A program made the translations under genes and the position numbers. This document shows, piece by piece, positions 2,805-54,357 of a stretch of 64,000 nt of DNA (positions are counted from its first letter, which is position 1; each line of letters opens with the position of its first letter). The stretch lies in the IMG/VR virus record IMGVR_UViG_3300045988_142756; one strand, 5' to 3'. A model generated the notes under the pieces. It worked only from the letters and a program-made list of their open reading frames with translations, searched no databases and had not been told where the DNA came from. The stretch comes from a virus.

Positions 2805-3745
2805 TGATAACAGTAGCAGGTAGACAACTTAATACCAGTGTATTAGAAGTTATTCAAGCACTTAGACAGTATATGCTTGATTTAGGTGAGGATTATTTTC
2901 ACGACATTAAAGATGTTGGTAATGATATAATGCTTACTTGTCCGAGGCATTCTAATCATAACGAAAGAAAACCGTCTTGTGGTGTTAGAAAGACTGACGG
3001 GTTTTGTCATTGTTTCACTTGCGGTTATGCTGTACCATTTGAAGAAATGATAAGCAATGTAATGGGTTATGATGACGGCGGTATAAAAGGAATACAATGG
3101 TTGTTTACGAATTTTATTGAAACTATATATAATATTCGTAACGATATAGAGATACCTGTTAGAAATGAAATATCCAGGTCAAATACATATATAACAGATG
3201 ATGTATTAGATAAATATCGTTATTATCATAAATATATGTGGAAACGTGGACTGACGGAAGATATAGTTGATAAATTTGATATAGGGTATAATAAAGAAAA
3301 TAATACTATAACATTTCCAGTTAATGACATAAAAGGTAATTGTGTATTTGTTGCTGAAAGAAGTGTTATAGGTAAATTTTTCCACTATCCAAAATCAAGT
3401 GAGAAACCTGTTTATGCGTTAGATAAAATTGTTAAGAATAATATTAAAGAAGTGTATGTAGTAGAATCTTTTTTTAATTGCTTAACATTATGGAAATGGG
3501 GACGACCTGCTGTTGCTTTAATGGGTGCAAGTTTAACTGACTATCAAAAAAAGCAATTAGAAAAAACTGATATAAAAAGATTTATACTTTGCTTTGACGG
3601 AGATTCGGCAGGAAGGAAAGGTGCTAAAAGGTTTGAAGAACTAATGCCAAATAAACTGATTAAAGTTATAGATATGTATGAAGGAAAAGATGTAAATGAT
3701 TTAACTTTAGAACAGTTTGAAAAACTTGAGAAAAAATATTTATAA
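2804..3745 (+). CDS. dnaG: DnaG-like primase (zinc finger + TOPRIM)
   Basis: N-terminal CPRHSNHNERKPSCGV...CHCFTCG zinc finger. TOPRIM-like VVESFFNCL and CFDGDSAGRKG motifs. Confidence 0.8.
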   Translation: MITVAGRQLNTSVLEVIQALRQYMLDLGEDYFHDIKDVGNDIMLTCPRHSNHNERKPSCGVRKTDGFCHCFTCGYAVPFEEMISNVMGYDDGGIKGIQWLFTNFIETIYNIRNDIEIPVRNEISRSNTYITDDVLDKYRYYHKYMWKRGLTEDIVDKFDIGYNKENNTITFPVNDIKGNCVFVAERSVIGKFFHYPKSSEKPVYALDKIVKNNIKEVYVVESFFNCLTLWKWGRPAVALMGASLTDYQKKQLEKTDIKRFILCFDGDSAGRKGAKRFEELMPNKLIKVIDMYEGKDVNDLTLEQFEKLEKKYL

Positions 3746-4848: not shown

Positions 4849-5478
4849 ATGAACGCAACTTTCAAAATGTTATCAACATTAAGGGACGAAAAATACGCAA
4901 AAATGGCTAATGAAGAATTAGCCATTGCGTACCAACATTCAGACTTAAATGCGTCTATACTTGCTGAGATGTATTGTAGGAACTTTACAATATTGTATAA
5001 TCTTGCAAGTAAATTTTATTCAATTCCGGAAGATGACAAAGCAAGTATAATAACACAACAACTCAATATCACAATGCAAGCGTTTGACGCTAATAAAGGT
5101 GTTAAATATATAACGTTTGCTATAAAAGATATAAACGAAAAATTCGTAGCATATCTTCAGAAATATAGCCGTAAAGGAAGAATAAATTTCTGTGATTGTA
5201 GTAGTTTAAGTAACGATACCGAGGACAACACAGGTTATGATAACGACGATAACTTTATCGCATATAATCATTTCGACAATTATATGAGTGAAGTTGAACT
5301 CATTGATACGATTAAACATAGTAATTTATCTTTAATTGAGAAAAAGGTATGTTATTTATTTATGAAAAGTGATACCTGTACAAGAGAAGAGATTGCGAAT
5401 AAACTCGGTGTAAGCAGACAAACAGTTCAGATTGCTGTTAAAAATCTTAAGCAAAAATTAAAGTTTGTACTTGACTAA
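4849..5478 (+). CDS. sigma-factor-like transcription regulator (region-4 HTH)
   Basis: C-terminal TREEIANKLGVSRQTVQIAVKNLKQKL is a sigma region 4 / HTH pattern. The ATG at 4849 has an AAAGGAG RBS 9 nt upstream, whereas the ORF-track TTG at 4840 abuts the RBS. Confidence 0.5.
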   Translation: MNATFKMLSTLRDEKYAKMANEELAIAYQHSDLNASILAEMYCRNFTILYNLASKFYSIPEDDKASIITQQLNITMQAFDANKGVKYITFAIKDINEKFVAYLQKYSRKGRINFCDCSSLSNDTEDNTGYDNDDNFIAYNHFDNYMSEVELIDTIKHSNLSLIEKKVCYLFMKSDTCTREEIANKLGVSRQTVQIAVKNLKQKLKFVLD

Positions 5479-5479
5479 A

Positions 5480-5510
5480 TTTACAATTTTAGTAGTTTCA
5501 AAAGTATATT
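5480..5510 (+). promoter_or_regulatory. promoter-like TTTACA-19-TATATT
   Basis: TTTACA at 5480-5485 and AGTATATT ending at 5510. Confidence 0.4.
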
Positions 5511-5537
5511 ACATTGAATACAATGGTTGAGGTATAT

Positions 5538-5660
5538 ATGAAATTAGCGAAAAAACTTTCAGTATGGTTCTACCGATGGGCTTGGAAAATAAAACCTATC
5601 GATAAAAATACACAAAATAATAAAAAACAAGGAGACACAAAAACAAATGGGAAAAATTAG
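5538..5660 (+). CDS. possible 40-aa leader or small basic peptide overlapping the SSB start
   Basis: ATG with a GAGG RBS 7 nt upstream. Encodes MKLAKKLSVWFYRWAWKIKPIDKNTQNNKKQGDTKTNGKN. Below the ORF-track cutoff. Confidence 0.25.
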   Translation: MKLAKKLSVWFYRWAWKIKPIDKNTQNNKKQGDTKTNGKN

Positions 5661-6408
5661 TTACAAAGACATTGACAACTATTCTTCTTCTGAAAACAAC
5701 ACAACTTTCTTTACTCTTTCAAATGATGGCGATAGTGCTATCGTAAGAATTCTTGCAGACTCTATCGACGATGTATTTATTACACCTGTACACGAAAATG
5801 TCGATGTAGACGGTGTTCAGCGTAAAGTAAATTGTCTTAGAAAACCTAACGGTTCTATTGACGATTGCCCGTTCTGTAAAGCAGGTATGCGAGTATCTAT
5901 TAAGATGTATCTTGAACTTCTTGTCTATGAACAGGATAAAAGAGGTAATCCTACTGGAAAATATACTTACGAAGTATGGGAACGCGGCAAAAAATATATC
6001 AATAAAATTACAGCACTTAGTGCGAGATACGCATCTAAGAAACCTCTGACAGATATGCTTTTTGAAATTACGCGTAACGGCGAAAAAGGCGACCAGAATA
6101 CTTCTTATGAAATCTTCCCTATTACAGATACAGAATTCTATGATATCTGCACTTATAACGAAGATGACTTGCCGGAACCTTTTGACCCCATTGGTAAGAT
6201 GGTTATGAAAAAAGATTTTGATGAAATGGATTACTACACTAAAAAGGGTAGATTTCCTAAAACAGAATCTCGTGAAAAAGTAGAAAAAGATAAACCGCCT
6301 TTTGATACGGAAGATGAAGAAGTTGTAGAAGAAAGAACTTCAAGACGAGTTGTAGAAGAAGACGAAGAAGAGGAACAGCCTGTTCGTAGAACAAGGAGAC
6401 TCGGATAA
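5647..6408 (+). CDS. gp32-like single-stranded DNA-binding protein with zinc motif and acidic tail
   Basis: H-x13-C-x10-C-x2-C (HENVDVDG...CLRKPNGSIDDCPFC) is close to the T4 gp32 zinc site spacing. Highly acidic C-terminus (EEDEEEEQ). Confidence 0.6.
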   Translation: MGKISYKDIDNYSSSENNTTFFTLSNDGDSAIVRILADSIDDVFITPVHENVDVDGVQRKVNCLRKPNGSIDDCPFCKAGMRVSIKMYLELLVYEQDKRGNPTGKYTYEVWERGKKYINKITALSARYASKKPLTDMLFEITRNGEKGDQNTSYEIFPITDTEFYDICTYNEDDLPEPFDPIGKMVMKKDFDEMDYYTKKGRFPKTESREKVEKDKPPFDTEDEEVVEERTSRRVVEEDEEEEQPVRRTRRLG

Positions 6409-8657
6409 TGCTTAAAAATTCACTTATAGGTGATTTAAGCAGAAATAAAGTTTCCGATAAACAACTTATTAAACAGACAAAATTGTCGTCAAGTAAATCG
6501 TTCAGAACTAACACTATTCAGAATAAACTTGATTTAATTAAAGTAAATGTTAATAAATATTTAGGTAAATATTCGGATATTGTTGAAGTTGTACGGACGG
6601 AAGAACGACTTAAAGAATTTATAGATAATGCCGTCAAAAACGGCATTATTTCTATAGATACTGAAACTGATGGCTTAAACCCTCTTGTCAATCATATTAT
6701 AGGCGTTTGTTTATATACTCCAAACGAAAAGGCTATCTATATTCCCACACGCCATAAGAGTTATGTAACGCAACAATTATTATCTAATCAGTTACAACCT
6801 GAAATATTAGAAAAATATTTCAATTTAATTAAAGATAATAATGTGAAAGTTATAATGCACAATGCTAAGTTCGATAAGCGATTTATTAACTCTAACTATA
6901 ACGTTAATTTGGATATATACTGGGATACTATGCTTGCAGCAAGATGTATAAATAATCTTGAATCTGCAGCATTAAAATTTCAGTATTCCGATAAACTCGA
7001 AAAGCATAAAAAAGAATATGATTTTGAGTCGTTATTTAGAGGTATGGAACAGGCGCTTATACCTGTAGATGTGTTTTATTTATACGCCGCTGTTGACGCT
7101 TATATAACATATAAACTCTATTTGTGGCAGGAAGAAAAATTCAAAGAGTTACCAAGAGTTTATAATGTGTTTAAGAATATAGAGGTACCCCTTATAGAAG
7201 TAGTATCAGCAATGGAGGATACTGGTATTTCTTTGGATATTGATTACGCAAAAACACTTAGTGTTAAATATCATAAATTACTTGACGAAGCATATAAGAA
7301 TGTTGAAAAAGAATTAAAACCGTATAATGCTAAAATAAAAGAGTTTGCGGATAAAGGTAAGAAAATCGAGTATCCGATGAATATAACAAGCCCTACTCAG
7401 TTAGCAGTTTTATTCTATGATATACTTGAAATACCGCCGGTAGATAAGAAGAAACCGCGTGGTACAGGTGAAGAAATACTTGTTAAAATTGATTTGCCTA
7501 TATGTAAAGCAATCTTAGAGGTTAGAAAACTTGAAAAACTTATCGGTACATATATTGATAAATTGCCAGAAGTTGTCTTAAACGACGGTAAAATACACGC
7601 AAGTTTTAATCAATATGGTGCAGACACAGGTAGATTTAGTTCAAGTGACCCTAATCTACAGAATATTCCGTCACATAATAAAGACATTAGAAAGATGTTT
7701 ATAGCATCACCGGGTTATTATATGGCGTCAATGGACTATTCTAAACAAGAACCTTTTACACTTGCCGAATTTAGTCAAGACGAAAAATTTATGGCTAACT
7801 TTAACGGTGGTAAAGATGTATATGCGATGATTGCCTCGGACGTTTATAAAAAACCTTATGACCAGTGTCTTGAATTTAATCCTGACGGCACAACTAATCC
7901 GGAAGGAAAAGAAAGAAGAAGTAACGCAAAATCTATTTTGCTTGGAATTATGTATTCGAGAGGTGCTAATAGTATTGCAGAACAGACAGGTTCGACTGTA
8001 AAAGAGGCACAAGCGATTATTGATAGTTTTCATAAATCTTATCCACAAGCGGATAAATGGATTAAGCAAACAGTCGAAGACGCAAAGAAAAACGGGTATG
8101 TAGAAACTCTTGCCGGTAGAAGAAGACAGATACCGGATATGTTATTACCCGAATACAGTTATGAACTAATTTCAAGTAAACCTGTAGATTTTAATCCTAT
8201 GTTATTCAATACTGAAACGGAATTATCTTTTGAAGTTGACGAAAAAACAAAGCAAGTTTATAATAATAAATTGAAAAATTGTTTTAAGTTTACGGAAAAA
8301 CAGAAAATCATTGAAGACGCATATAAAAATGGTATTAAAATTAAAGACAATTCGTTAAAAGTAGGAGATGCCACAAGGCAATGCGTTAATAGTAGAATAC
8401 AAGGTAGTGCTGCTGATATGACAAAATCGTCAATGATTAACATCTACAATAATAAACGGCTTAAAGAATTAGGTTGTAGATTATTAGTATGTATTCACGA
8501 CGAAGTTATTGTTGAAGCACCTAAAGAAAATGCAAAAGAAGCATTTGAATTAGTATCTAAAATAATGGTAGATTCTGCAAAACAATTTATTCATTTACCG
8601 ATAAAATGCGACGCAGAGGTTACAGAACAGTGGTACGGTAAATCTATTGAATTATAG
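6408..8657 (+). CDS. polA: family A DNA polymerase (Pol I-like) with 3'-5' exonuclease domain
   Basis: Exo motifs ISIDTETDGL, HNAKFD and YAAVDAYITYKL. Polymerase motif A MDYSKQEP, motif B RSNAKSILLGIMYSRG and motif C CIHDEVIVE. Confidence 0.9.
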   Translation: MLKNSLIGDLSRNKVSDKQLIKQTKLSSSKSFRTNTIQNKLDLIKVNVNKYLGKYSDIVEVVRTEERLKEFIDNAVKNGIISIDTETDGLNPLVNHIIGVCLYTPNEKAIYIPTRHKSYVTQQLLSNQLQPEILEKYFNLIKDNNVKVIMHNAKFDKRFINSNYNVNLDIYWDTMLAARCINNLESAALKFQYSDKLEKHKKEYDFESLFRGMEQALIPVDVFYLYAAVDAYITYKLYLWQEEKFKELPRVYNVFKNIEVPLIEVVSAMEDTGISLDIDYAKTLSVKYHKLLDEAYKNVEKELKPYNAKIKEFADKGKKIEYPMNITSPTQLAVLFYDILEIPPVDKKKPRGTGEEILVKIDLPICKAILEVRKLEKLIGTYIDKLPEVVLNDGKIHASFNQYGADTGRFSSSDPNLQNIPSHNKDIRKMFIASPGYYMASMDYSKQEPFTLAEFSQDEKFMANFNGGKDVYAMIASDVYKKPYDQCLEFNPDGTTNPEGKERRSNAKSILLGIMYSRGANSIAEQTGSTVKEAQAIIDSFHKSYPQADKWIKQTVEDAKKNGYVETLAGRRRQIPDMLLPEYSYELISSKPVDFNPMLFNTETELSFEVDEKTKQVYNNKLKNCFKFTEKQKIIEDAYKNGIKIKDNSLKVGDATRQCVNSRIQGSAADMTKSSMINIYNNKRLKELGCRLLVCIHDEVIVEAPKENAKEAFELVSKIMVDSAKQFIHLPIKCDAEVTEQWYGKSIEL

Positions 8658-8688
8658 TTTACAAAAAACCAATATAACTTAGTATAAT
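8658..8688 (+). promoter_or_regulatory. promoter-like TTTACA-19-TATAAT in front of the dpdA cassette
   Basis: TTTACA at 8658-8663 and AGTATAAT ending at 8688, in the 48-bp gap after polA. Confidence 0.45.
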
Positions 8689-8705
8689 ATATTGAGGTAA
8701 TTGAT

Positions 8706-9620
8706 ATGAGTTTTGATTTATATTTTGCAGGTAGTAGAGGCAAGGTATGCGATAACTGGTTATATATGAACGACTGTAACAGATTGTACAGTCAATTGAA
8801 TAACCGGTCAGATATAAAATATTTTTGTGAAAATGCAACTTCTTCAAAATCAAAGTTATTTATTGACTCGGGTGCTTTTTCTGCACATACAAAAGGGGCA
8901 GAAGTAGATGTTGATGATTACATAAATTATGTTAATTCTCTCGACAATAAAGTTACTATATTTGCACAAGTTGATAAGATTCCTGGCACATTTGGTAAAG
9001 CCAGAACTATTCAGGAAATAGAAGAAGCACCTGCTATAAGTTGGGATAACTACTTATATATGAGAGAAAGATTAGTTTCTCCTGATAAATGTTTACCTGT
9101 TTTTCACCAAGGTGAAGATTTTAAGTGGCTTGATAATATGTTAGAGGCTACATTTAATGGTAAACATATCCCATATATTGGAATATCTCCAAGCAATGAT
9201 TTAACTGTTAAAAGAAAGGAAACATTTATTCAAGAGTGCTTTAAGCATATAAAGAAATCGAATAATCCTGATGTTAAAACACACGCTTTCGGAATGACAT
9301 CGCTTAAAGTTTTGGAACGTTACCCCTTTTATAGTGCGGATTCCACTACTTGGTTAATAATTGCGGCTATGGGAAGTGTTATGACCCCTTGGGGAACTTT
9401 ATACGTTAGTTCAAGGGAATACAGTGAGGATAATGTTAACTGCTTACCTGATAAGGCTAAAAATGTTATTATTGAATATTTTGATTCTTTAGGGTTTAGT
9501 ATGCAAGATTTATCCGAAAAGAATGAAGCAAGAGCCTTGGCAAATTGTATGTTTCTTAAAAAATGGGCGGATAGTTATCAGTATAAACCTGCTACTACTT
9601 TTAAGAATAAATTATTTTAA
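8706..9620 (+). CDS. dpdA: DpdA-like DNA (7-deazaguanine) transglycosylase, TGT superfamily
   Basis: KLFIDSGAFSAH corresponds to the TGT DSGGFQ substrate motif in its DpdA form. A second Asp motif is YSADSTTW. 304 aa. Located next to a YhhQ-type transporter gene. Confidence 0.65.
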   Translation: MSFDLYFAGSRGKVCDNWLYMNDCNRLYSQLNNRSDIKYFCENATSSKSKLFIDSGAFSAHTKGAEVDVDDYINYVNSLDNKVTIFAQVDKIPGTFGKARTIQEIEEAPAISWDNYLYMRERLVSPDKCLPVFHQGEDFKWLDNMLEATFNGKHIPYIGISPSNDLTVKRKETFIQECFKHIKKSNNPDVKTHAFGMTSLKVLERYPFYSADSTTWLIIAAMGSVMTPWGTLYVSSREYSEDNVNCLPDKAKNVIIEYFDSLGFSMQDLSEKNEARALANCMFLKKWADSYQYKPATTFKNKLF

Positions 9621-9642
9621 TAATAAACTGTTATAGAATTTT

Positions 9643-9697
9643 GCTGAAGTTAGGTATTCCTTATAATCCTTCAGCTTAAATAATAAAACATAAGGAG
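9643..9697 (+). promoter_or_regulatory. hairpin plus possible SD-sequestering pseudoknot upstream of yhhQ (riboswitch-like candidate)
   Basis: 7-bp stem GCTGAAG (9643-9649) / CTTCAGC (9669-9675). Loop TCCTTAT (9658-9664) is complementary to ATAAGGA (9690-9696), which contains the yhhQ Shine-Dalgarno. An A-rich linker lies between them. Confidence 0.35.
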
Positions 9698-9705
9698 ATT
9701 TTTCT

Positions 9706-10476
9706 ATGGAAAAATTAAAAATGTGGGCAAAAAAAGAATGGCAAGAAACATCTATCTTATTTCATTCAATTCCGTCTGTTACAGTAGTTCTATTTGCTGT
9801 ATCTGTTGTAGCAATGAATCTGATGGCTAACAAAACGATAGTGTCTGTTAATGACGCAGCAGGTAATCAGGTTTTTGCGCTGGATGGTGGATTTACTGTA
9901 TCTTGGATATCCTTCTTGTGTATGGATATAATCACTAAACGATTTGGACCTAAAGCATCAACTAAGGTATCTATATTAGCAATAGGCACTAATGTATTAA
10001 CGTGTTTAATGTTTTGGCTTGTTAGTATAATTCCAACAGATAAATCTTTAGGTGATTTTTCTGCAATTGACTCCGTCTTAGGAGGAACTTGGTTTGTTCT
10101 TTTAAGTAGCACGATTGCTTTTATAATTTCGGCAGTCATCAATAACTTTACTAACGACGCATTAGGTAAAGCGTTTCATAAGAACCCTAATGGTAAATTA
10201 GCCTATGTAACAAGAACATATATTTCTACAATGATAGGTCAATTTTTAGATAACTTAATATTCTCTGTATTAACATTTATGATATTTGCGCCTAAATATT
10301 GGGGATTTAAGTGGACATTTTTAGCGTGTATAACTTGTGCTATAACTGGTGCAGTTGCTGAGCTCGTTATGGAAATAATCTTTTCTCCTATTGGATTCAA
10401 CGTTTGTAAAAAATGGGAAGCAAAAGGCATTGGAAATGAATACATTTCGTATTGCTTAAAGGAGAAAGATATATGA
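9706..10476 (+). CDS. yhhQ: YhhQ/VUT-family queuosine-precursor (preQ0/preQ1) transporter
   Basis: Polytopic membrane protein. SFLCMDIITKRFGPKA and ISTMIGQFLDNLIFSVLTF align by eye with E. coli YhhQ FLATDLTVRIFGAPLA and ASTLFGNVSDTLAFFFIAF. Confidence 0.75.
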   Translation: MEKLKMWAKKEWQETSILFHSIPSVTVVLFAVSVVAMNLMANKTIVSVNDAAGNQVFALDGGFTVSWISFLCMDIITKRFGPKASTKVSILAIGTNVLTCLMFWLVSIIPTDKSLGDFSAIDSVLGGTWFVLLSSTIAFIISAVINNFTNDALGKAFHKNPNGKLAYVTRTYISTMIGQFLDNLIFSVLTFMIFAPKYWGFKWTFLACITCAITGAVAELVMEIIFSPIGFNVCKKWEAKGIGNEYISYCLKEKDI

Positions 10477-11120
10477 AAGTAGTTATAACTGGAAGTAGTT
10501 CCGGAATAGGTCAATCTACCGCTAAGTTATTTATAGAAAGAGGACACGATGTTATAGGTATAGATAGAGAAGATAGTACAATATCTGACGATAACTATAA
10601 ACACATCGTTTGCGATATTCGCTTTATTGACCAACTACCTAATATAGAAGGTGTTAATATTCTTATAAATAACGCAGGTACTCAAAATGAAGATGACATC
10701 GGAAATAATCTTATAGGTACTATAAATGTTACTGAAAAGTATGCGTTTCAAAGTGCTATTAAGAGCGTACTTATGGTATCTTCTGCAAGTGCATTAACAG
10801 GTGCTGAATTTTACGAATATTGTGCAAGTAAAGGTGGAATGAACGCTTATGGCAAGAACGTTGCCAGTAGAATTGCAAAATATAACGCCACTTGTAACAA
10901 TCTTTGTCCTGGGGGTGTAAGTACTGCTTTGAATAAACATATTTTAGATAATCCTTCTATGTTGAAAAAAGTATTATCTGAAACAATGCTGAATCGATGG
11001 GCAACAGCAGATGAAATCGCTGAATGGATATATTTTTTAACTGTTACAAATAAATTTATGACAGCACAAGATATATTAGTGGACGGAGGCGAAGCCGCTA
11101 AATCAAATTTCATATGGTAG
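10473..11120 (+). CDS. classical short-chain dehydrogenase/reductase (SDR)
   Basis: TGSSSGIG cofactor motif, NNAG, catalytic Ser (VSSASAL) and YCASK (YxxxK). The ATG at 10473 overlaps the yhhQ stop as ATGA. Confidence 0.8.
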   Translation: MKVVITGSSSGIGQSTAKLFIERGHDVIGIDREDSTISDDNYKHIVCDIRFIDQLPNIEGVNILINNAGTQNEDDIGNNLIGTINVTEKYAFQSAIKSVLMVSSASALTGAEFYEYCASKGGMNAYGKNVASRIAKYNATCNNLCPGGVSTALNKHILDNPSMLKKVLSETMLNRWATADEIAEWIYFLTVTNKFMTAQDILVDGGEAAKSNFIW

Positions 11121-11350
11121 AAATATTAGGTATAATTTCAACGCTATTCATTGTTTTAGCGTTTGCGTGTAAAAATATTATATCAATAAGGTTATTAGAT
11201 ATAATAGGTGCTATGGGATTTGTAGTATATGGTGCATTAACAAAAACGTGGAGCACATTAGCATTAAACATTGCACTCATACTCATAAATTTATTTTATT
11301 TAATTAAATATTACAAGGAGAAACATAAAAATGTTGAAAATCAAAACTGA
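11114..11350 (+). CDS. small 3-TM membrane protein, SemiSWEET/PnuC-clan-like
   Basis: 78 aa with three hydrophobic segments. GFVVYGAL...LNIALILINLFYLIKYYKE resembles the TM2-TM3 pattern of SemiSWEET/PnuC-type 3-TM units, but the PQ motif is absent. Overlaps the SDR stop by 7 nt. Confidence 0.4.
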   Translation: MVEILGIISTLFIVLAFACKNIISIRLLDIIGAMGFVVYGALTKTWSTLALNIALILINLFYLIKYYKEKHKNVENQN

Positions 11351-12470
11351 AACACTTAAAACAGCTGTAACAAAATCGGTAAAAGGTTCAAGCAGACTGC
11401 CTATGCTTTTGCTTACTAATTGCATTGGTATTGAAGTAAAAGACGGAAATCTTATTCTTACTACTACTGACGGCAGTACTAATCTTGAGGTTACTGTAAA
11501 AGTTAATACTAACGAAGAATTTTATGCTTGCACGGATAGTGCTTTATTTGCGTCACTTGTTTCTAAAACAACTACTGACGACATTGGGCTTGAAATTAGA
11601 AACGAGTCTTTATTCTTCCGTGGTAACGGCGTTTATAATCTGCCCTTGGTACAAGACGAAGAAGGAAATACTGTTCGTATCCCAGTTGATACTAATTTTG
11701 ATGCTGAAACTGCTGTTACTGTTAAAAAGGAAGACATTGTTCCTTTGTATAAATTTAATAAACTTGCAGTAGCGAAAACAAAAGAGATTCCTCAATTCTC
11801 GGCGTATTGCGTATCTCATAACAGAATTTATACTTATAATACAACTAACCTTTGTATTTCTAAATCTAAACTGGGTAGTTTCAATATGTTACTTCCTGCA
11901 AGCGTTGCAGATTTGTTAGCACTTATAGATGAAGATGAAATTCAAGTAGTTAATGCTGATTCTAAATTCATCATTAAATCTAACACTATCTTTATTCAGG
12001 GTACAGTTGTAGATGGTTTTGAAAAATTCCCTATTGATGCTGCAAATCAACTTATTACTCCGTCTAATTTCAGTACTAAGATTGAATTGAATACAACACA
12101 ACTTGTTAATGTGCTTGACCGTATGTCGTTGTTTATTGCACCAGAAGATATGAATGCAATTAACTTAACTCTTACTGAAGATTATCTTACAATTACGAAT
12201 AGGGCAGGTAATGGTTGTGAAAAACTTTTATATCTTTCCAGACCTACTGGTAGCCCTTCTTTGGAAACTTGTTTAGATATTTCAGACCTTAAAATGGTTG
12301 TCAGTGCAGTTGAGTTGGATTCTGTTAATATTTCATTTAGTGATACAGGTAACGCTTGTATTGAACTTACGAATTCTTATATTGTTATTCCTTCTATTTC
12401 TACTGAGGAAGAAGAACAGGTTGAAGAAGAATATGTTTCTGAAGAAGACGAGGTAGAAGATGTCGAATAA
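11331..12470 (+). CDS. dnaN: DNA polymerase sliding clamp (beta-clamp-like)
   Basis: The N-terminus MLKIKTETLKTAVTKSVKG...PMLLLTNCIGIEVKDGNLILTTTDGSTNLEV is a typical beta-clamp opening. About 380 aa with an acidic tail. Confidence 0.7.
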   Translation: MLKIKTETLKTAVTKSVKGSSRLPMLLLTNCIGIEVKDGNLILTTTDGSTNLEVTVKVNTNEEFYACTDSALFASLVSKTTTDDIGLEIRNESLFFRGNGVYNLPLVQDEEGNTVRIPVDTNFDAETAVTVKKEDIVPLYKFNKLAVAKTKEIPQFSAYCVSHNRIYTYNTTNLCISKSKLGSFNMLLPASVADLLALIDEDEIQVVNADSKFIIKSNTIFIQGTVVDGFEKFPIDAANQLITPSNFSTKIELNTTQLVNVLDRMSLFIAPEDMNAINLTLTEDYLTITNRAGNGCEKLLYLSRPTGSPSLETCLDISDLKMVVSAVELDSVNISFSDTGNACIELTNSYIVIPSISTEEEEQVEEEYVSEEDEVEDVE

Positions 12471-20035: not shown

Positions 20036-20313
20036 TGCAAAGGAATAATGTTGTGAATTTACTTTCGAGATTAAAAAATAGTGTTGACCCAACTGTTAGA
20101 CAAATACTCGAACAAGCCTTAACGGAGATTAAATCTGCTCCAAAAGAGTATGATAAATGTTTACGCTGTGGTAAAAAATTAACTACACCTGAATCTCGCA
20201 GACGCGGTTATGGTGCAGAATGCTATATGAAACTAATAGAAAGCAGACATCACAAGAATTCATTGATATCAGGTGTGGAAAATGTTGACAGCGGAACAGC
20301 AAAAGATTGTTGA
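20035..20313 (+). CDS. small zinc-ribbon protein (DUF6011-like), paralog of the 15849 C-terminus
   Basis: CLRCGKKLTTPESRRRGYGAECYMK. Confidence 0.5.
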   Translation: MQRNNVVNLLSRLKNSVDPTVRQILEQALTEIKSAPKEYDKCLRCGKKLTTPESRRRGYGAECYMKLIESRHHKNSLISGVENVDSGTAKDC

Positions 20314-20845
20314 GGACAATATAAATCTTGTATATAGTATAGCCCATAAATATCATAATCAACGATTATTCGATGATATGATACAAGAAGGTTGTGTTGG
20401 TTTAATTAAAGCAGTAGAAAGATTTGATACTAATCTCGGAATAAAATTTAGTACATTTGCATATTATTATATATCTGGTTATATAAATATGTTTTTACGA
20501 AGAGATTGCGTTATAAAACCAGTTACACGACAGGCTAAGGTAGATATGCCAGATATATGTGAATTACCTGAGAATGTAGCATTTGAAGAAAATTATGATA
20601 ATATTGATACGTTTATATGTAATGACATATTTAATGCAATATCTGATTTCCAAAAATTCATATTAGTAATGCTTAAAGAGGGTTTTACACAAGAAGATAT
20701 TGCTGCTGCAACAGGTAAGACACAATGTAAAATAAGTCAGGAGCTACAAGCAGTTAGGAATAATCCTACTGTTTTAGAAATAGCATCAAAATTTTATAGT
20801 GAAGGAGAATTGCTAAATGGCAGAAGAACAAGAAGTAAAAGTTAA
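20282..20845 (+). CDS. sigma-70 family RNA polymerase sigma factor
   Basis: Region 2 MIQEGCVGLIKAVERFDTNLGIKFSTFAYYYISGYI. Region 4 HTH FTQEDIAAATGKTQCKISQELQAV. ATG at 20282 follows an AGGTG RBS. Confidence 0.8.
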   Translation: MLTAEQQKIVEDNINLVYSIAHKYHNQRLFDDMIQEGCVGLIKAVERFDTNLGIKFSTFAYYYISGYINMFLRRDCVIKPVTRQAKVDMPDICELPENVAFEENYDNIDTFICNDIFNAISDFQKFILVMLKEGFTQEDIAAATGKTQCKISQELQAVRNNPTVLEIASKFYSEGELLNGRRTRSKS

Positions 20846-35177: not shown

Positions 35178-35264
35178 GCGAGAGTGGTGAAATAGGCAGA
35201 CACACAAGACTTAAAATCTTGAGAAGTAAAATTCGTGTGGGTTCAAGTCCCACCTTTCGCACCA
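35178..35264 (+). tRNA. tRNA-Leu (anticodon TAA), type II with long variable arm, CCA encoded
   Basis: Acceptor GCGAGAG/CTTTCGC. Anticodon stem CAAGA/TCTTG with loop CTTAAAA. T arm GTGGG-TTCAAGT-CCCAC. CCA at 35262-35264. Confidence 0.9.
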
Positions 35265-35487
35265 CGGTGGCACGACAAATTGTCACCCTATGGATAAAAA
35301 ATCGCGTGTGCTGAAATAAAGCAAGGGTTACTAACTAATTCGCGGTAAGTTAATTGTAACAAGATACTCAAAGTACAAGAGTATGGTAGTAGTTTGGAAG
35401 CGGTTCTACTACAAAATTTTTAACAGGGCTACTTAGAAAACGAACGAGGGAAATATCGTGTCCGAAGTAAATTTAGCCCTACTTTAT

Positions 35488-35564
35488 CGGGGCGTGGCGC
35501 AGTTTGGGAGCGCGAATGGTTTGGGACCATTAGGCCGGAAGTTCAAATCTTCTCACCCCGACCA
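35488..35564 (+). tRNA. tRNA-Pro (anticodon TGG), CCA encoded
   Basis: CGGGGCG acceptor (one C-A mismatch). D arm GCGC-AGTTTGGGA-GCGC. Anticodon stem AATGG/CCATT with loop TTTGGGA. T loop TTCAAAT. Confidence 0.85.
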
Positions 35565-35578
35565 AAATAAAAATATTT

Positions 35579-35655
35579 GGACCTTTAGCACAGTTGGTTA
35601 GTGCGTTCGGCTCATAACCGAATGGTCCTTGGTTCGAGTCCAAGAAGGTCCACCA
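35579..35655 (+). tRNA. tRNA with CAT anticodon (elongator Met or Ile2; not initiator-like), CCA encoded
   Basis: Perfect cloverleaf: GGACCTT/AAGGTCC acceptor, TTCGG-CTCATAA-CCGAA anticodon arm, CTTGG-TTCGAGT-CCAAG T arm. Confidence 0.9.
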
Positions 35656-35743
35656 GGTATTCGTTTTGTAGGTTTGCTGTTACCGCTGTAAAACAGTAAT
35701 GAGAGAAAGATACGCGTTAAATATCTCATATCAAACCTACCTT

Positions 35744-35818
35744 GCTGGTATGGCTCAATGGCAGAGCAATTGATTTGTAATCAATAGGTTGTTGGTTCGA
35801 CTCCAACTATCAGCTCCA
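35744..35818 (+). tRNA. tRNA-Thr (anticodon TGT), CCA encoded
   Basis: GCTGGTA/TATCAGC acceptor, ATTGA-TTTGTAA-TCAAT anticodon arm, GTTGG-TTCGACT-CCAAC T arm. Confidence 0.9.
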
Positions 35819-42450: not shown

Positions 42451-44493
42451 ATGCCAACGACAATAAATTTAAGAGAAGCCAAAATGTGGCAAATGAAAAA
42501 GTCGTTATATGCTTTCTTACGTGAAATGTGGGACGCATATGAAACGGCTCAGTATAGTGATATTTGGCTTATGGAATATCTATGTGAGTGCTTCCAGTAT
42601 TCTGTGAAGCATTTTTTGCCGAATTATGTTTGGCGAGATTGGATAACAGACGACGAATATAACTATATAAAAGAAAAATCTCACGGGGAGTGTCCTGTTA
42701 GAGATAAACTTATAAATGGCGAACACGTTCATAACCACGATTGGAATATGCCACCTCGTCATTCAAAAAGTTCTATATTAAATATTTGTGGACCTGTTTG
42801 GTTAGGACTTAACTCACCTATATCCGTTGCAAGTGTATCTCATACAGAACGCTTGTCAACAGAAATGAATACTAAACGCCAAAAATTATTGGAGAGTGAT
42901 AAATTTAAGTATTATTTCACAGACAGTGCATATAGACTTAAAAATTCAACTGCTTCAATGATTAGACTTAACAGTGGGTCAACATTTTATTCGGTATGTC
43001 AATCATCTTTCACAGGTTTTGGTGCTGATGTTATTATAGCGGATGACTTAACTTCTGCCGATAATGCAAGAAAAGACGGACAAGTATTAAGAAATAGTAT
43101 AGACTTTTTTAGAAAAACACTTCCAACCCGACTTAACACAAAGAAAACAGGCGTAATATGGCATATAGAACAGAGAATTGCACGAGGCGATGTAAGTGGT
43201 TACATACAAGAGGATAAAGATTTATCGCGAGTATATAGTCATACAGAAATACAAGCAATAGCAACTGACGATAGAGTTTTAATATATCCGTGTAGTGGAA
43301 AAGTTAAAATAATTAAAAAAGGTGAAAAATTATGGCCTGAAAGATTTGGCGACTATTCTACTGCTAAAATGGAAATGGGTGCAGATGAATTTAATACTCA
43401 ATACCAACAGGACGCAGGAGCGAGTGCAAGTAACATTGTTAAAGAACAATATATACATTATATAAGTGAAGAAGAATTTAGACGTGATTATAAACCTATG
43501 GCAGAATTCCATTATGGTTCACACGACTGCCCGGTAAAGGATAAAGAAATAAACGACTACCACGGGTTCGCAGAAGGATATGGTAGAGGTAATGAATTAG
43601 TAATATGCGAAGCGTGGCAAGAACATTTAGGGTATATAAAAGAAAAAGAACTATTAGTAAGTCTTGAAAATATAGACCCAGCAATAATACAGATAGTTGA
43701 AGATAAAGCAAACGGAGGTGCATTATTACAAGATTTATCTTCTCAACTTGCAGGCTTAGCACCTTTTAATCCCGGAACAGACAGCAAATCTCAACGGTTG
43801 TCAATAGCAGCAACATATATGCAAAATGGAGCGGTAAGATTTGTTAAATCCGATAAAACCTCAGAAGCAATAAGTAGTTTATTAAAATTTCCATTTTTAG
43901 TTCACGACGACGTTGTAGATGCTATAAGTCAAATGATTATATATCACTTTACAAGTAGACGAATGGGTATATACACAAATAGTTTTACCTATCAAAATAT
44001 AATACCAGATAGTGTTAGAGATAATTCACAATATTTGGAATATGGTGCAACTATTAACGGGGATACGATAAAGGTACTTGGTATAAATAGAATGTTTGAT
44101 AGAGACGAATATGTTGTCGAAAAAGAATATATATTTATAGGTATAAATAAATTTGAACAGTGGGCAAAAGAATTAAGAGGAAATTTATTATTAGATTGTA
44201 GTTATGAAAATAGATTATTTAACTTAGTTGATAAAAATTCTGTATTTATGACCAAATTTAATGACACAGATACGGACAAATCTTTCCAACTTGTTAAATC
44301 TGGTTTTTATAATAACAAAATTAAAATATGTAACAGTTGCTCACAGACAAAAAACGACATTGCTAAATTAAGAATAACCGAATCATCACGCCGTAAAGGC
44401 ACAGATGTACAAGAAACATTAGACGAAGGAATGGCGGGTTGCGTAAGAGGTTTAGTAACATATTTCAAAGGAATCGGTGGGCAGTGGTACTAA
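42451..44493 (+). CDS. terL: terminase large subunit
   Basis: 680 aa. Walker-A-like PPRHSKSSIL, Walker B ADVIIADDLTS, and a nuclease-type C-terminal half with HDDVVDA. Confidence 0.75.
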   Translation: MPTTINLREAKMWQMKKSLYAFLREMWDAYETAQYSDIWLMEYLCECFQYSVKHFLPNYVWRDWITDDEYNYIKEKSHGECPVRDKLINGEHVHNHDWNMPPRHSKSSILNICGPVWLGLNSPISVASVSHTERLSTEMNTKRQKLLESDKFKYYFTDSAYRLKNSTASMIRLNSGSTFYSVCQSSFTGFGADVIIADDLTSADNARKDGQVLRNSIDFFRKTLPTRLNTKKTGVIWHIEQRIARGDVSGYIQEDKDLSRVYSHTEIQAIATDDRVLIYPCSGKVKIIKKGEKLWPERFGDYSTAKMEMGADEFNTQYQQDAGASASNIVKEQYIHYISEEEFRRDYKPMAEFHYGSHDCPVKDKEINDYHGFAEGYGRGNELVICEAWQEHLGYIKEKELLVSLENIDPAIIQIVEDKANGGALLQDLSSQLAGLAPFNPGTDSKSQRLSIAATYMQNGAVRFVKSDKTSEAISSLLKFPFLVHDDVVDAISQMIIYHFTSRRMGIYTNSFTYQNIIPDSVRDNSQYLEYGATINGDTIKVLGINRMFDRDEYVVEKEYIFIGINKFEQWAKELRGNLLLDCSYENRLFNLVDKNSVFMTKFNDTDTDKSFQLVKSGFYNNKIKICNSCSQTKNDIAKLRITESSRRKGTDVQETLDEGMAGCVRGLVTYFKGIGGQWY

Positions 44494-52956: not shown

Positions 52957-54357
52957 ATGAAAAAATTCAAAATTACACAAGGCGATAGGGTTTATATAGT
53001 TGATGCAAAAAGTCATATAGACGCTATTAGCAAAGTTAAGGCAGTTAAAACGGATGAGATGAGAGATTCTATATCTCAATGGAATCCAGGTATGAGTGAA
53101 ATAGGTTTATTTCAAATTTCATACAAGCGCAACGGGGTATATCAATCAATACTTGTCAGAGCCAACTCTGAAGAACAGGCAAAGCAGAAGTTATTAAACA
53201 ATCTAAACGGAGTAGATATTATAGGAGTTAATTCCCACCCTTCTCCTCACTTCCACGAACCTATTTTAGATTCTAAGATAAAAGATGATGGTTATTATTA
53301 TTTACTCAGAGATGCTATTGATTTATTAACTAAACCGGGTGCAGCAAGAAGTTGGTCACAGCCTTATTTAGAGGAAGTACAAGAATATATGGTTCAAAAA
53401 GGCATAAACCCTACAAATGTAAATCAGTGGAAGAAAAAATATGAAAGCCTTACTAAGGATTCCTCAATAAAAGATATAAATCAAGTATTATTATCTAATC
53501 TTAAACAAGTAGCACAAAAAGGTGATGCTTGGTGGAATAAATGGAAGAAATTATTAGATATGAGTGATAAATGGAATTCTTATCAATGGAAGGAACTTAG
53601 AAATAATGACCCTAAAAAATATAAACTTATTATTAATAATAAACAGTATGCGGAAAAAGAAGCTGAGGCACTAAATAGAGAATGGGATAGAGCAATAGAT
53701 GCTTTAAGCAGAGACAGATCGTTTGGTCGTCCTGGTGATTATAGAATGGATTTACACAGTTACAAATCTCGTAATGATAATTATCCTATGGGTAATAGTC
53801 GAAGATATGATGAGATTTTATATGGTTATGAACAAGCAGAAAAATCTGCCAGAGCAAAAAAGGGCTTAGATTCTTCTATAAAAGATGCGTGGTCTGGTAT
53901 TAGAAGTAATGGGGTTATATTTAACTATTCTAATGGAAAATATACAATAACGCATAAGAATGGCAAGGTAGAAACATTCCCTGATAATAAATTTAATACT
54001 GTCGAAGAATTATTTAAGTATATAGATAATATAAAAGACTCTGCTATTAAAGATGAAGATTATTCTAAATATTTGTCTATTGTAAAACAACTTGAGAAAC
54101 TTGTAGAACCTGCTAATAGAGCGTTACAACAGAAAATTGCAAAATACGGTGTAACTAAACAAGATATAAGAAATAATTCTCCAAAATATAGAGATGTATG
54201 TAGAGAAATACCAGAATTAAAAGTATGGGCAAAGTTAATTATGCAGTTACCTGGAGAATTAGCAGGATTTATGCCTGCACACCCGAGTCAAGAAAGTGTA
54301 GATAAACTTAAAAAAGCAATAACTAATAGTAAAGCATTTGACTCCACTATAAAATAA
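52957..54357 (+). CDS. member 6 of the family: 466-aa protein with two N-terminal modules and 6 D-S-x-I-K-D-type motifs
   Basis: MKKFKITQGDRVYIVDAKSHIDAISKVKAVKTD and FQISYKRNGVYQSILVRANSEEQAKQKLLNNL. Motifs include LDSKIKD, KDSSIKD, LDSSIKD, KDSAIKD and a terminal FDSTIK. Confidence 0.6.
   Translation: MKKFKITQGDRVYIVDAKSHIDAISKVKAVKTDEMRDSISQWNPGMSEIGLFQISYKRNGVYQSILVRANSEEQAKQKLLNNLNGVDIIGVNSHPSPHFHEPILDSKIKDDGYYYLLRDAIDLLTKPGAARSWSQPYLEEVQEYMVQKGINPTNVNQWKKKYESLTKDSSIKDINQVLLSNLKQVAQKGDAWWNKWKKLLDMSDKWNSYQWKELRNNDPKKYKLIINNKQYAEKEAEALNREWDRAIDALSRDRSFGRPGDYRMDLHSYKSRNDNYPMGNSRRYDEILYGYEQAEKSARAKKGLDSSIKDAWSGIRSNGVIFNYSNGKYTITHKNGKVETFPDNKFNTVEELFKYIDNIKDSAIKDEDYSKYLSIVKQLEKLVEPANRALQQKIAKYGVTKQDIRNNSPKYRDVCREIPELKVWAKLIMQLPGELAGFMPAHPSQESVDKLKKAITNSKAFDSTIK

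Follow-up and report, generated by a model that had tools for sequence, protein, structure and literature searches.

A DpdA island of gut phages in which a predicted queuosine-precursor importer and an associated short-chain dehydrogenase/reductase stand in place of base biosynthesis genes

Modification of DNA with 7-deazaguanine bases is an established counter-defense of phages, and the phage systems described so far are either equipped to synthesize the base or presumed to draw on the host. Closest to the locus reported here is that of Streptococcus phage Dp-1, whose gene cluster gp1–gp7 encodes QueF, QueC, QueD, QueE, FolE, the transporter QueT of ECF (energy-coupling factor) type and the transglycosylase DpdA; Bacillus phage Flasso likewise carries FolE, QueD, QueE, QueC and QueF beside DpdA. 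Virion DNA of Dp-1 contains dPreQ1, in which the base is 7-aminomethyl-7-deazaguanine (preQ1), at 3389 per 10^6 nucleotides (nt) (PMC6884629). The same study noted that some phages encode the importer YhhQ, without correlation to any phage group (Hutinet et al., PMC6884629). Among bacterial systems, E. coli YhhQ transports 7-cyano-7-deazaguanine (preQ0) and preQ1 but not queuine, some members of the QPTR family transport queuine, and salvage in Clostridioides difficile involves the hydrolase QueK, the radical S-adenosylmethionine (SAM) queuine lyase QueL and the transporter QrtT (PMC11130926).

Here we analyze a 64,000-nt stretch of viral DNA from a human gut metagenome (IMG/VR record IMGVR_UViG_3300045988_142756; hereafter the window). 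[quoted passage not shown] Phage DpdA and 7-deazaguanine DNA are already well described; what is new here is a DpdA island apparently fed by salvage and furnished with a new accessory enzyme. A whole branch of Dp-1-like gut phages would thereby have given up a biosynthetic pathway of five genes in exchange for an import module.

The DpdA island and its substrate supply

We compared 80 IMG/VR loci containing a Dp-1-type DpdA, together with several loci reached through the SDR. In all of these phage loci the PolA–DnaN interval is a variable island, and PolA recurs as its upstream border in all related loci. The gene sets found in the islands are as follows (L numbers denote loci).

Full de novo: FolE, QueD, QueE, QueC and QueF, with or without QueT, together with DpdA (L001, L040–L044)
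De novo without QueF: FolE, QueD, QueE and QueC; two DpdA-like matches per locus (L068–L082)
Partial de novo: FolE, QueD and QueE only (L026, L028–L032)
Importer only: YhhQ (L018, L022, L037)
Importer and SDR: YhhQ together with the SDR; 3-TM gene present or absent (window, L010, L045–L058, L084)
Importer and 3-TM: YhhQ and the 3-TM gene (L059, L078, L092)
Importer and QueF: QueF and YhhQ (L025)

Across the 80 DpdA loci, neither YhhQ nor the SDR co-occurs with QueC, QueD, QueE or FolE, and the SDR accompanies QueC, QueD or QueE in none of the approximately 35 phage loci of the de novo type. It is chiefly from this mutual exclusion that we argue for import, by way of the cassette, as the source of substrate for DpdA, which we regard as very probable. 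It lends support to the idea of an imported precursor, put forward in an earlier reading of the window from its letters alone (hereafter the original prediction).

With the help of a 98%-identical, circularly permuted IMG/VR contig (IMGVR_UViG_3300045988_134108; 91,961 bp), we reconstructed the whole genome of ~92 kb, apparently circularly permuted; positions 1 and 64000 of the window fall at ~62.6 kb and ~33.6 kb of the contig. The 29 kb outside the window encode tail-fiber and membrane proteins; a block at about window 53118–53873 fails to align with the contig. Profile hidden Markov models (HMMs) for FolE, QueD, QueE, QueC, QueT and stand-alone QueF, the last made from stand-alone QueF only with DpdA–QueF fusion ORFs excluded, gave no match at E<=10 among 455 ORFs covering the whole genome except for 388 bp (contig positions 43,142–43,528). 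The absence of folE, queD, queE, queC and queF that had been noted for the 64 kb thus extends to the genome with that exception. Pfam scans of ten further non-structural ORFs of the window found no queuosine (Q)-related domain, and no dpdB–K genes were seen. With no que gene in its genome, the phage cannot make a 7-deazaguanine base itself; it is a phage without its own 7-deazaguanine synthesis.

The layout of the cassette and its borders is given below. For all four ORFs, the coordinates, motifs and overlaps given in the original prediction are exact.

6408..8657, plus strand: PolA, family-A DNA polymerase (Pfam DNA_pol_A 4.1e-93, DNA_pol_A_exo1 5.1e-17), the upstream border of the variable island
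8658..8688, plus strand: promoter-like site TTTACA-16 nt-TAGTAT with an overlapping TATAAT (scan match 8658–8685, 9 of 12 positions); weak evidence
8706..9620, plus strand: DpdA, 304 aa, assigned to the Dp-1-type DNA 7-deazaguanine transglycosylases of the tRNA-guanine transglycosylase (TGT) superfamily
9641..9704, plus strand: preQ1-I-like leader RNA, abutting the yhhQ start (covariance model 30.0 bits)
9706..10476, plus strand: predicted YhhQ/QPTR importer (Vut_1, COG1738), 256 aa; Pfam Vut_1
10473..11120, plus strand: classical SDR, 215 aa counted from ATG; adh_short_C2
11114..11350, plus strand: 3-TM SemiSWEET-like half of the Imp-YgjV family, 78 aa; Pfam Imp-YgjV
11331..12470, plus strand: DnaN-like sliding clamp (phrog_947 4.1e-27; 25% identity to Dp-1 DnaN), the downstream border of the island

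Successive genes overlap from yhhQ onwards: by ATGA at 10473–10476 (yhhQ and SDR), by 7 nt at 11114–11120 (SDR and 3-TM) and by 20 nt at 11331–11350 (3-TM and clamp).

Sequence and predicted structure place the first ORF (8706–9620) in the TGT/DpdA superfamily, within a Dp-1-type phage clade, as had been proposed. It matches phrog_887 ('queuine tRNA-ribosyltransferase') at 1.3e-60 and is 49.5% identical to Dp-1 gp7 over its full length of 304 aa (E=3e-90) and 48.5% identical to the DpdA of Flasso. An AlphaFold2 model built on 33 homologs reached a mean predicted local distance difference test score (pLDDT) of 91.3 and a predicted template modeling score (pTM) of 0.88, and its top 50 Foldseek matches in the Protein Data Bank (PDB) were all members of the TGT superfamily (48 tRNA-guanine transglycosylase entries and two Cap10 chains; probability 1.00, TM-score <=0.65). 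A profile HMM of the family searched against PDB sequences gave chance matches only. The motifs LFIDSGAFSAH and YSADSTTW are present in the translation, and D54 (FIDSG), D90, D165 and D212 (SADST), candidates for acidic active-site residues, are invariant in the 33 homologs. NF041059, the NCBIfam equivalog of the bacterial Dpd system, scored 16.3 bits against a cutoff of 200 (E=0.0032), over a stretch of 56 residues only, indicating that the protein belongs to a phage clade and is not the bacterial DpdA equivalog.

Two kinds of locus tie this DpdA clade to preQ1. First, DpdA–QueF fusions occur as ORFs of ~525 aa in six related loci (L038, L039, L042, L052, L055 and L067), starting near locus position 9998, or at 4953 or 6174 in the shorter loci; they suggest physical coupling, in this clade, between the reduction of preQ0 and base exchange. 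A cluster representative of this kind, P0243 (525 aa, Pfam PF14489), was also matched in a protein search. Second, L025 has the order DpdA-QueF-YhhQ without QueC, QueD or QueE, a gene set that implies import of preQ0 followed by its reduction. Its close relatives have DpdA-YhhQ (L022) or DpdA-YhhQ-SDR (L019 and L021), so that QueF and the SDR appear as alternative partners of YhhQ in sister phages.

The module is kept over considerable divergence. Linkage of the SDR and 3-TM genes with dpdA and yhhQ persists in numerous relatives, at DpdA identities of no more than 36–57%, and the adjacency of YhhQ and SDR is retained in three gene orders relative to DpdA. Loci with the SDR occupy at least five separate places in a neighbor-joining tree of DpdA (without support values), a scatter that points to repeated gain or loss of the module. 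Relatives were reachable at the protein level only, as a blastn search with the cassette against 50,697 phage records gave no match.

Compared with Dp-1, the window phage shares a related DpdA, a precursor transporter beside it, a leader match, weak in Dp-1 and placed there before queF, and the order of the replication module, which downstream is identical (DpdA, DnaN, Cas4/RecB, RecU, gp13, RecA, DnaX, HolA). It differs in lacking all five genes for biosynthesis as well as QueT, the ECF-type transporter, and in having YhhQ, the SDR and the SemiSWEET-like protein instead.

The YhhQ–SDR pair and its leader RNA

The second gene of the cassette is predicted to encode a queuosine-precursor importer, in agreement with the original prediction. 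Its product matches Pfam Vut_1 (PF02592) at 88.1 bits (gathering score 27.2; 1e-24), and SFLCMDIITKRFGPKA and GQFLDNLIFSVLTF, the motifs through which it had been aligned with E. coli YhhQ, are both present in the translation. The Vut_1 family is broad, its members being described as 'putative vitamin uptake transporters', and against TIGR00697 ('queuosine precursor transporter') the protein scores 35.5 bits, under the cutoff of 50.95, as a divergent member. Its genomic context consists of an adjoining DpdA gene, complementarity to QueC, QueD, QueE and FolE in related loci and a leader RNA match. Like the YhhQ/QPTR transporters of E. coli (preQ0 and preQ1) and Chlamydia trachomatis (queuine), it belongs to Vut_1 and has a preQ1-I-type leader that would occlude the Shine–Dalgarno (SD) sequence; unlike them, it is encoded by a phage, falls below the TIGR00697 cutoff and belongs to an SDR-paired subfamily.

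The third gene encodes an intact classical SDR. It matches adh_short_C2 at 81 bits (1e-22) and adh_short at 64 bits, both above the cutoffs, and has the motifs TGSSSGIG, NNAG and YCASK that had led to its identification. Over 201 phage and bacterial sequences (47–99% identity), D31, S104, S106, Y116 and K120 are invariant. In SDRs an Asp at the end of strand β2 is the classical determinant of a preference for NAD(H) over NADP(H), and the invariant Asp31 therefore predicts that this enzyme should prefer NAD(H); together with the invariant Ser-Tyr-Lys it indicates the design of an ordinary alcohol/ketone oxidoreductase. We also looked for an invariant Cys that could support QueF-like chemistry and found none in the 201 sequences, C117 being present in 50%, C141 in 68% and C145 in 29% of them. 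Among the named NCBIfam equivalogs the best match was PRK06550 (94 bits against 270); all 25 models listed scored far below their cutoffs, generic FabG-like reductases being the closest.

The same pair is found in cellular genomes. A scan of one bacterial genome per species with subfamily-specific SDR motifs returned 568 candidate loci, of which the best 80 were examined. The subfamily is marked by the motifs CNN[LI]CPGG and N[VI]TE[KR]Y. A YhhQ gene lies immediately upstream of the SDR gene on the same strand in 77 of the 80, and in the other three a Vut_1 gene is directly downstream or 1.5 kb away, so that a Vut_1 gene is near the SDR gene in every one. The pair, Vut_1 then SDR with overlapping genes, sits in bacterial chromosomes among neighbors such as MatE, TrkH/TrkA, DegV and peptidase U32, with DpdA not nearby; no third conserved neighbor (tgt, queA, nucleoside hydrolase and the like) was found beside it. 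Its carriers belong to three phyla and include Clostridia, Bacilli, Erysipelotrichales, Lachnospiraceae, Spirochaetota (Sphaerochaeta and Treponema) and many Collinsella, including the cultured C. aerofaciens ATCC 25986. In one Clostridiaceae locus (L117, 4638–5352), Vut_1 lies 1.5 kb downstream of the SDR behind a leader of its own (35.2 bits).

Since the SDR is fixed beside YhhQ where DpdA is not nearby, its substrate is most likely the imported base in free form and not DNA. Its real partner is YhhQ, not DpdA, and it is not a tailoring gene specific to DpdA. Very probably its substrate is a compound imported by YhhQ and its reaction belongs to queuosine-precursor metabolism. In the open-access literature searched we found no report linking an SDR to YhhQ or to queuosine salvage, in agreement with the remark in the original prediction that no SDR is known to figure in the described 7-deazaguanine DNA pathways.

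Collinsella illustrate what such an enzyme would be for. Their genomes are listed with TGT, QueA and QueH, and without QueC, QueD, QueE, QueF or QueL (PMC11130926, Dataset S1). Collinsella need preQ1, and no route is known by which they could obtain it from either preQ0 or queuine. A missing step in bacterial queuosine salvage has a strong candidate in the SDR, whose carriers include abundant human gut genera such as Collinsella, and the bacterial YhhQ–SDR module would be a new member of queuosine salvage if its function is confirmed. Queuine is a micronutrient on which the human host also depends, and the SDR reaction, once identified, would change models of the competition for queuine and preQ1 in the gut.

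A leader RNA forms the third part of the module. In the window, the 85-nt spacer between dpdA and yhhQ holds a preQ1-I-like element (9641–9704) that was missing from the original prediction. By direct reading it has a P1 stem of 7 bp (9643–9649 with 9669–9675) and an A-rich tail, and its loop UUCCUUAU (9657–9664) is complementary at 8 of 8 positions to AUAAGGAG (9690–9697), which includes the SD sequence; this pairing would form a putative H-type pseudoknot. The element has the preQ1-I architecture of H-type pseudoknot, A-rich tail, SD sequestration and a place 5′ of a Q-salvage gene, and preQ1-I riboswitches controlling yhhQ have such an architecture with the SD sequence occluded (PMC10622847). 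It also resembles the preQ1-I riboswitches (RF00522, types I–III) in its short P1 and pyrimidine-rich loop.

Upstream of the bacterial pair, the Rfam PreQ1 model scored 39.2 bits (gathering threshold 39) in L099, 75 nt before a Vut_1-SDR operon. In a search of 40 bacterial loci, Rfam at the gathering threshold returned tRNAs only, and at E<=10 L114 alone scored PreQ1 (27.1 bits). Most of the other bacterial operons have at their 5′ side a similar element that Rfam does not score, with a stem of 5–7 bp, a loop beginning with UUCG, an A-rich tail and an SD sequence; in most bacterial copies, as in that of the window, the loops are longer and the score stays below the Rfam threshold. Nineteen bacterial leaders, L099 among them, align in register as one alignable family. 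In the P1 stem 93.7% of cells are paired, compared with 38–56% in slid controls, and three of the five pairs show compensatory changes; because the leaders were collected with a descriptor demanding a complementary stem, only the diversity of the stem counts as evidence of covariation.

Rfam having scored few copies, we built a covariance model (R1) from the alignment of the 19 leaders, including the Rfam-positive L099. The model matched 27 of the 46 bacterial loci searched. In the window, it scored the leader at 30.0 bits (E=6.5e-4), the next-best match in the 64 kb reaching 16 bits, with the 3′ end 1 nt short of the yhhQ ATG. Matches also lie directly upstream of phage yhhQ genes in L015 (56.5 bits), L008 (two matches), L097, L010, L013, L014, L019, L021 and L030, and weaker ones in L037, L018 and L022. 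By count, the model reached 11 yhhQ leaders of phages as well as that of the window, and homologous matches are placed directly before yhhQ in 10 phage loci other than the window. We rate the chance that the window leader is a functional, ligand-responsive switch as about even. In the open-access literature searched we found no phage-borne preQ1 riboswitch, and these leaders are candidates for one.

Other arrangements of the leader were seen in individual phages. In L008, a phage contig of ~142 kb, the SDR gene is flanked by two Vut_1 genes, each with its own leader (44 and 50.5 bits; 5035–9058); a further weak leader-like match lies upstream, and a gene with an amidase signature (PF01425) follows. 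L013 and L014 have successive matches at 8895–8944 (24.5 bits) and 9052–9116 (43.4 bits) before a single yhhQ, which may be tandem aptamers. Weak matches (17–21 bits) occur in the annotated 5′ untranslated region directly before queF in Dp-1 (L001, 74–130; 20.3 bits), and in the same position in its relatives L049 (6282–6340), L043 (169–227), L047 (6284–6342) and L041 (6287–6343); the de novo operon of these phages may also have a preQ1-type leader.

A proposed route to preQ1 and its rivals

Given the observed gene identities, the absent de novo genes, the conserved linkage and the leader match, we propose the following route. YhhQ would import a queuosine-family base from the gut environment, a leader of preQ1-I architecture being placed before its gene. 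The SDR, translationally coupled to YhhQ and probably captured with it as a unit from a two-gene bacterial salvage operon, would turn the imported compound into preQ1, the base used by bacterial TGT and by this DpdA clade. Among queuosine-family bases only queuine and queuosine have secondary alcohols (in the cyclopentenediol), and preQ0, preQ1 and 7-carboxy-7-deazaguanine (CDG) have neither alcohol nor ketone. In the likeliest chemistry, queuine would hence be oxidized at a ring hydroxyl (C4) in an NAD+-dependent manner, upon which the exocyclic amine would be beta to the new ketone and elimination would release preQ1; such oxidation-then-elimination logic operates in other enzymes. The SDR would in this way replace the radical-SAM queuine lyase QueL, to which it is unrelated. 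DpdA would swap guanine in the phage DNA for preQ1 to give dPreQ1, as in Dp-1, a modification expected to blunt host restriction, and the 78-aa SemiSWEET-like protein may act as a phage-specific second importer.

Our confidence differs between the parts of this scheme. Taken as a whole, from imported precursor through SDR conversion to insertion of preQ1 by DpdA, it is the account towards which we lean, by a little. For preQ1 as the product of the SDR we see the arguments as evenly balanced, and oxidative release of preQ1 from queuine is offered tentatively, as a reaction that we would not presume. The broader view is that the SDR is an unrecognized salvage enzyme for queuosine precursors, acting either as a queuine-to-preQ1 'lyase' that depends on NAD and is not a radical-SAM protein, or as a second type of biological nitrile reductase. 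In this view it is fixed together with a YhhQ subfamily, linked to a preQ1-type leader, in hundreds of gut and rumen bacterial species, and phages have repeatedly captured the module along with its leader to feed DpdA in the absence of biosynthetic genes; the view may just as well prove right as wrong.

The proposed logic is like that of C. difficile salvage, in which a transporter gene is clustered with a preQ1-regenerating enzyme serving a preQ1-specific transglycosylase (PMC11130926). There is no homology between the two systems: the window has an NAD(H)-type SDR instead of a radical-SAM enzyme and a YhhQ-type instead of an ECF transporter, and its reaction is our own proposal.

Several observations weigh against the scheme. 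Many related phages have DpdA and YhhQ alone, and since this combination suffices in them, the SDR is not essential for salvage. The association of SDR and Vut_1 is not absolute, as one metagenome contig (L011) carries a 65%-identical SDR with no Vut_1 within 6 kb; the impression gained from that contig, that the SDR is a generic enzyme, was overturned by the 80-species sample. The importer is divergent from the named queuosine-precursor transporters. The leader evidence is tempered by the preselection of stems, and the window leader departs from preQ1-I riboswitches in its longer loop, which begins with UUAG in place of the usual UUCG, and in its sub-threshold standing in Rfam: on window 8400–11600, neither PreQ1 (RF00522), even at E<=10, nor any other credible family matched. 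Its minimum free energy relative to shuffled sequences is not distinctive (z=-0.63), and it may altogether lack the ability to bind preQ1. The argument from queuine supply in Collinsella is weak because the 'QueK' column in which they are positive also scores 3 in E. coli and is thus non-specific (PMC11130926, Dataset S1). In Dp-1 only about 1.7% of G is modified, which makes the protective value uncertain, and its DpdA may insert preQ1 or else preQ0 that is later reduced on the DNA (PMC6884629). Finally, the exchange of QueF for the SDR between sister phages fits an SDR that reduces preQ0 equally well.

This last point leads to the best of the rival explanations, that the SDR is an unrelated replacement for QueF, with YhhQ importing preQ0 and the SDR reducing its nitrile to the aminomethyl group of preQ1. 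The SDR holds the place beside YhhQ that QueF has in L025 and would yield the same product, and carriers of the SDR such as Collinsella lack QueF yet need preQ1. Feedback by the product through a preQ1-type leader would suit a preQ0-reducing enzyme, as would the specificity of E. coli YhhQ, which moves preQ0 and preQ1 and not queuine (PMC11130926). The fold, however, is unrelated to the T-fold of QueF, and an enzyme with no conserved catalytic Cys and with an invariant Asp31 that favors NAD(H) has little in common with the NADPH-dependent QueF. To our knowledge, no biological nitrile reductase other than QueF has been described; its mechanism proceeds via a thioimide formed covalently with a Cys and uses NADPH. 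Moreover, the SDR is absent from the ~35 phage de novo loci, where a QueF substitute would be equally useful, and in bacteria it is tied to a transporter and not to que operons. We therefore consider nitrile reduction of preQ0 unlikely.

Less likely again is the original idea that the SDR is a tailoring enzyme that makes a new 7-deazaguanine derivative for the phage DNA. Phage 7-deazaguanine islands do carry tailoring enzymes, four extra derivatives having been found recently (PMC10516641), and related islands hold other candidate tailoring genes (a GNAT-like enzyme, an amidase, a GDSL hydrolase and a QueC-like fragment). The SDR subfamily is nevertheless fixed beside YhhQ in bacterial chromosomes with DpdA not nearby, where the canonical TGT pathway presumably serves as the consumer, and preQ0, preQ1 and CDG offer an SDR nothing to act upon.

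It is also improbable, to a slightly greater degree, that yhhQ and the SDR, with or without the 3-TM gene, serve tRNA, either by boosting queuosine-tRNA of the host for phage translation or as a captured host operon without consequence. The module is cellular in type, down to its leader RNA, and 48 phages that have genes of the Q pathway and lack DpdA have been suggested to boost Q production (Hutinet et al., PMC6884629). Against this, the module shares the PolA–DnaN island with DpdA at each of the phage loci examined, and its presence coincides exactly with the lack of de novo supply genes for DpdA, which would otherwise have no dedicated source of substrate.

That the compound handled by the Vut_1 protein and the SDR is vitamin-like and unrelated, with DpdA nearby by coincidence, would suit the breadth of Vut_1, the sub-cutoff TIGR00697 score and the FabG-like, far-below-cutoff NCBIfam matches of the SDR, but is very hard to reconcile with an Rfam-threshold PreQ1 riboswitch before one bacterial operon and homologous leaders before most others, with the strict complementarity of module and que genes in DpdA islands and with the QueF-YhhQ pair of L025, and we give it almost no weight.

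The half-transporter and other genes of the islands

The fourth gene is best read as encoding a phage-specific putative half-transporter, which would act as a homodimer and possibly as a second importer. The original assignment to SemiSWEET/PnuC-type proteins is borne out: the protein scores 28.5 bits against Pfam Imp-YgjV (PF10688; gathering score 23.5), aligning with profile positions 91–159 of 159, that is, the C-terminal repeat only, and the motifs VYGAL and YLIKYYKE are present in the translation. An exhaustive HMMER search collected 489 representative relatives, mostly of 70–100 aa, some of 170–210 aa matching twice. A profile of 50 members matched solved SemiSWEET structures (4x5m at 1.4e-5, 4qnc at 8e-4); of the members themselves, 45 match Imp-YgjV, 10 MtN3_slv and 2 PnuC. 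The AlphaFold2 model (pLDDT 93) has three helices, and its top five Foldseek matches are SemiSWEETs at E about 0.3, weak as expected for 78 residues. The protein is thus like SemiSWEET, Imp-YgjV and PnuC proteins in its three helices and its profile and fold matches, and unlike YgjV in covering the C-terminal repeat only.

Thirteen phage islands contain the 3-TM gene, some together with the SDR and some without it (a single island has FolE, QueD and QueE), and the gene is beside none of the bacterial YhhQ–SDR pairs at 84 loci. The SDR and the 3-TM gene are therefore independent accessories. The overlap of the 3-TM gene with the dnaN start is common to the window, L078, L084 and L092. We know of no SemiSWEET, Imp-YgjV or PnuC member that carries 7-deazaguanines. 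In the open-access literature we found nothing relevant to the function of YgjV, which is uncharacterized in E. coli, and no YgjV- or SemiSWEET-type candidate among transporters of Q precursors, a 2024 transporter survey being silent on the group. YgjV-type half-transporters are accordingly a further lead, as a candidate family of 7-deazaguanine transporters.

The cassette had also been credited with its own promoter. The site exists, but at 8658–8685 it is no better than chance, as this AT-rich region contains 14 promoter-like sites compared with 17.5 +/- 5.2 in shuffled sequence. No intrinsic terminator was found in 8400–11600. The window encodes a protein with a sigma-70 region 2 domain (20273–20845; Pfam 6.6e-15); promoter recognition may be under the control of the phage itself, in which case scans of the genome for a sigma-70 consensus would be uninformative. 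Four tRNA genes are clustered at 35178–35818 (Leu-UAA, Pro-UGG, Met-CAU and Thr-UGU), none of which reads the queuosine-dependent NAU/NAC codons.

Further genes were noted in related islands. An ORF of 150–190 aa for a GNAT-like acetyltransferase lies just 5′ of DpdA in L010 (6948–7496), L013, L014, L015, L008, L037 and L097, between the YhhQ-SDR-3TM genes and DpdA; its Pfam match is weak in L010 and reaches E <= 1e-5 (Acetyltransf_1) in L097. Such an enzyme could acylate the aminomethyl group of preQ1, giving an undescribed derivative. In salvage islands lacking the SDR, a nucleoside 2-deoxyribosyltransferase gene and a weak GT2-like gene adjoin YhhQ (L018, 11744–13165), and a partial QueC-like protein is encoded between DpdA and YhhQ (L092, 10946–11653, and L078, 2029–2736). 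GDSL-type hydrolases are encoded in L084 (12387–13034) and L087 (10981–11619). A CxxCxxCC (PF03692) protein is encoded between PolA and DpdA in the SDR-bearing loci L045 (9185–9928) and L050, and another divergently beside the SDR of L011 (5396–5950); both Pfam matches are weak, and the recurrence may be coincidence. In L019 (6582–9895), L021 (551–3864), L045 (5876–9183) and L095 (6590–9843), the PolA gene is split into at least two pieces by intervening ORFs of ~240 aa, which may reflect insertions of homing endonucleases or of introns or inteins.

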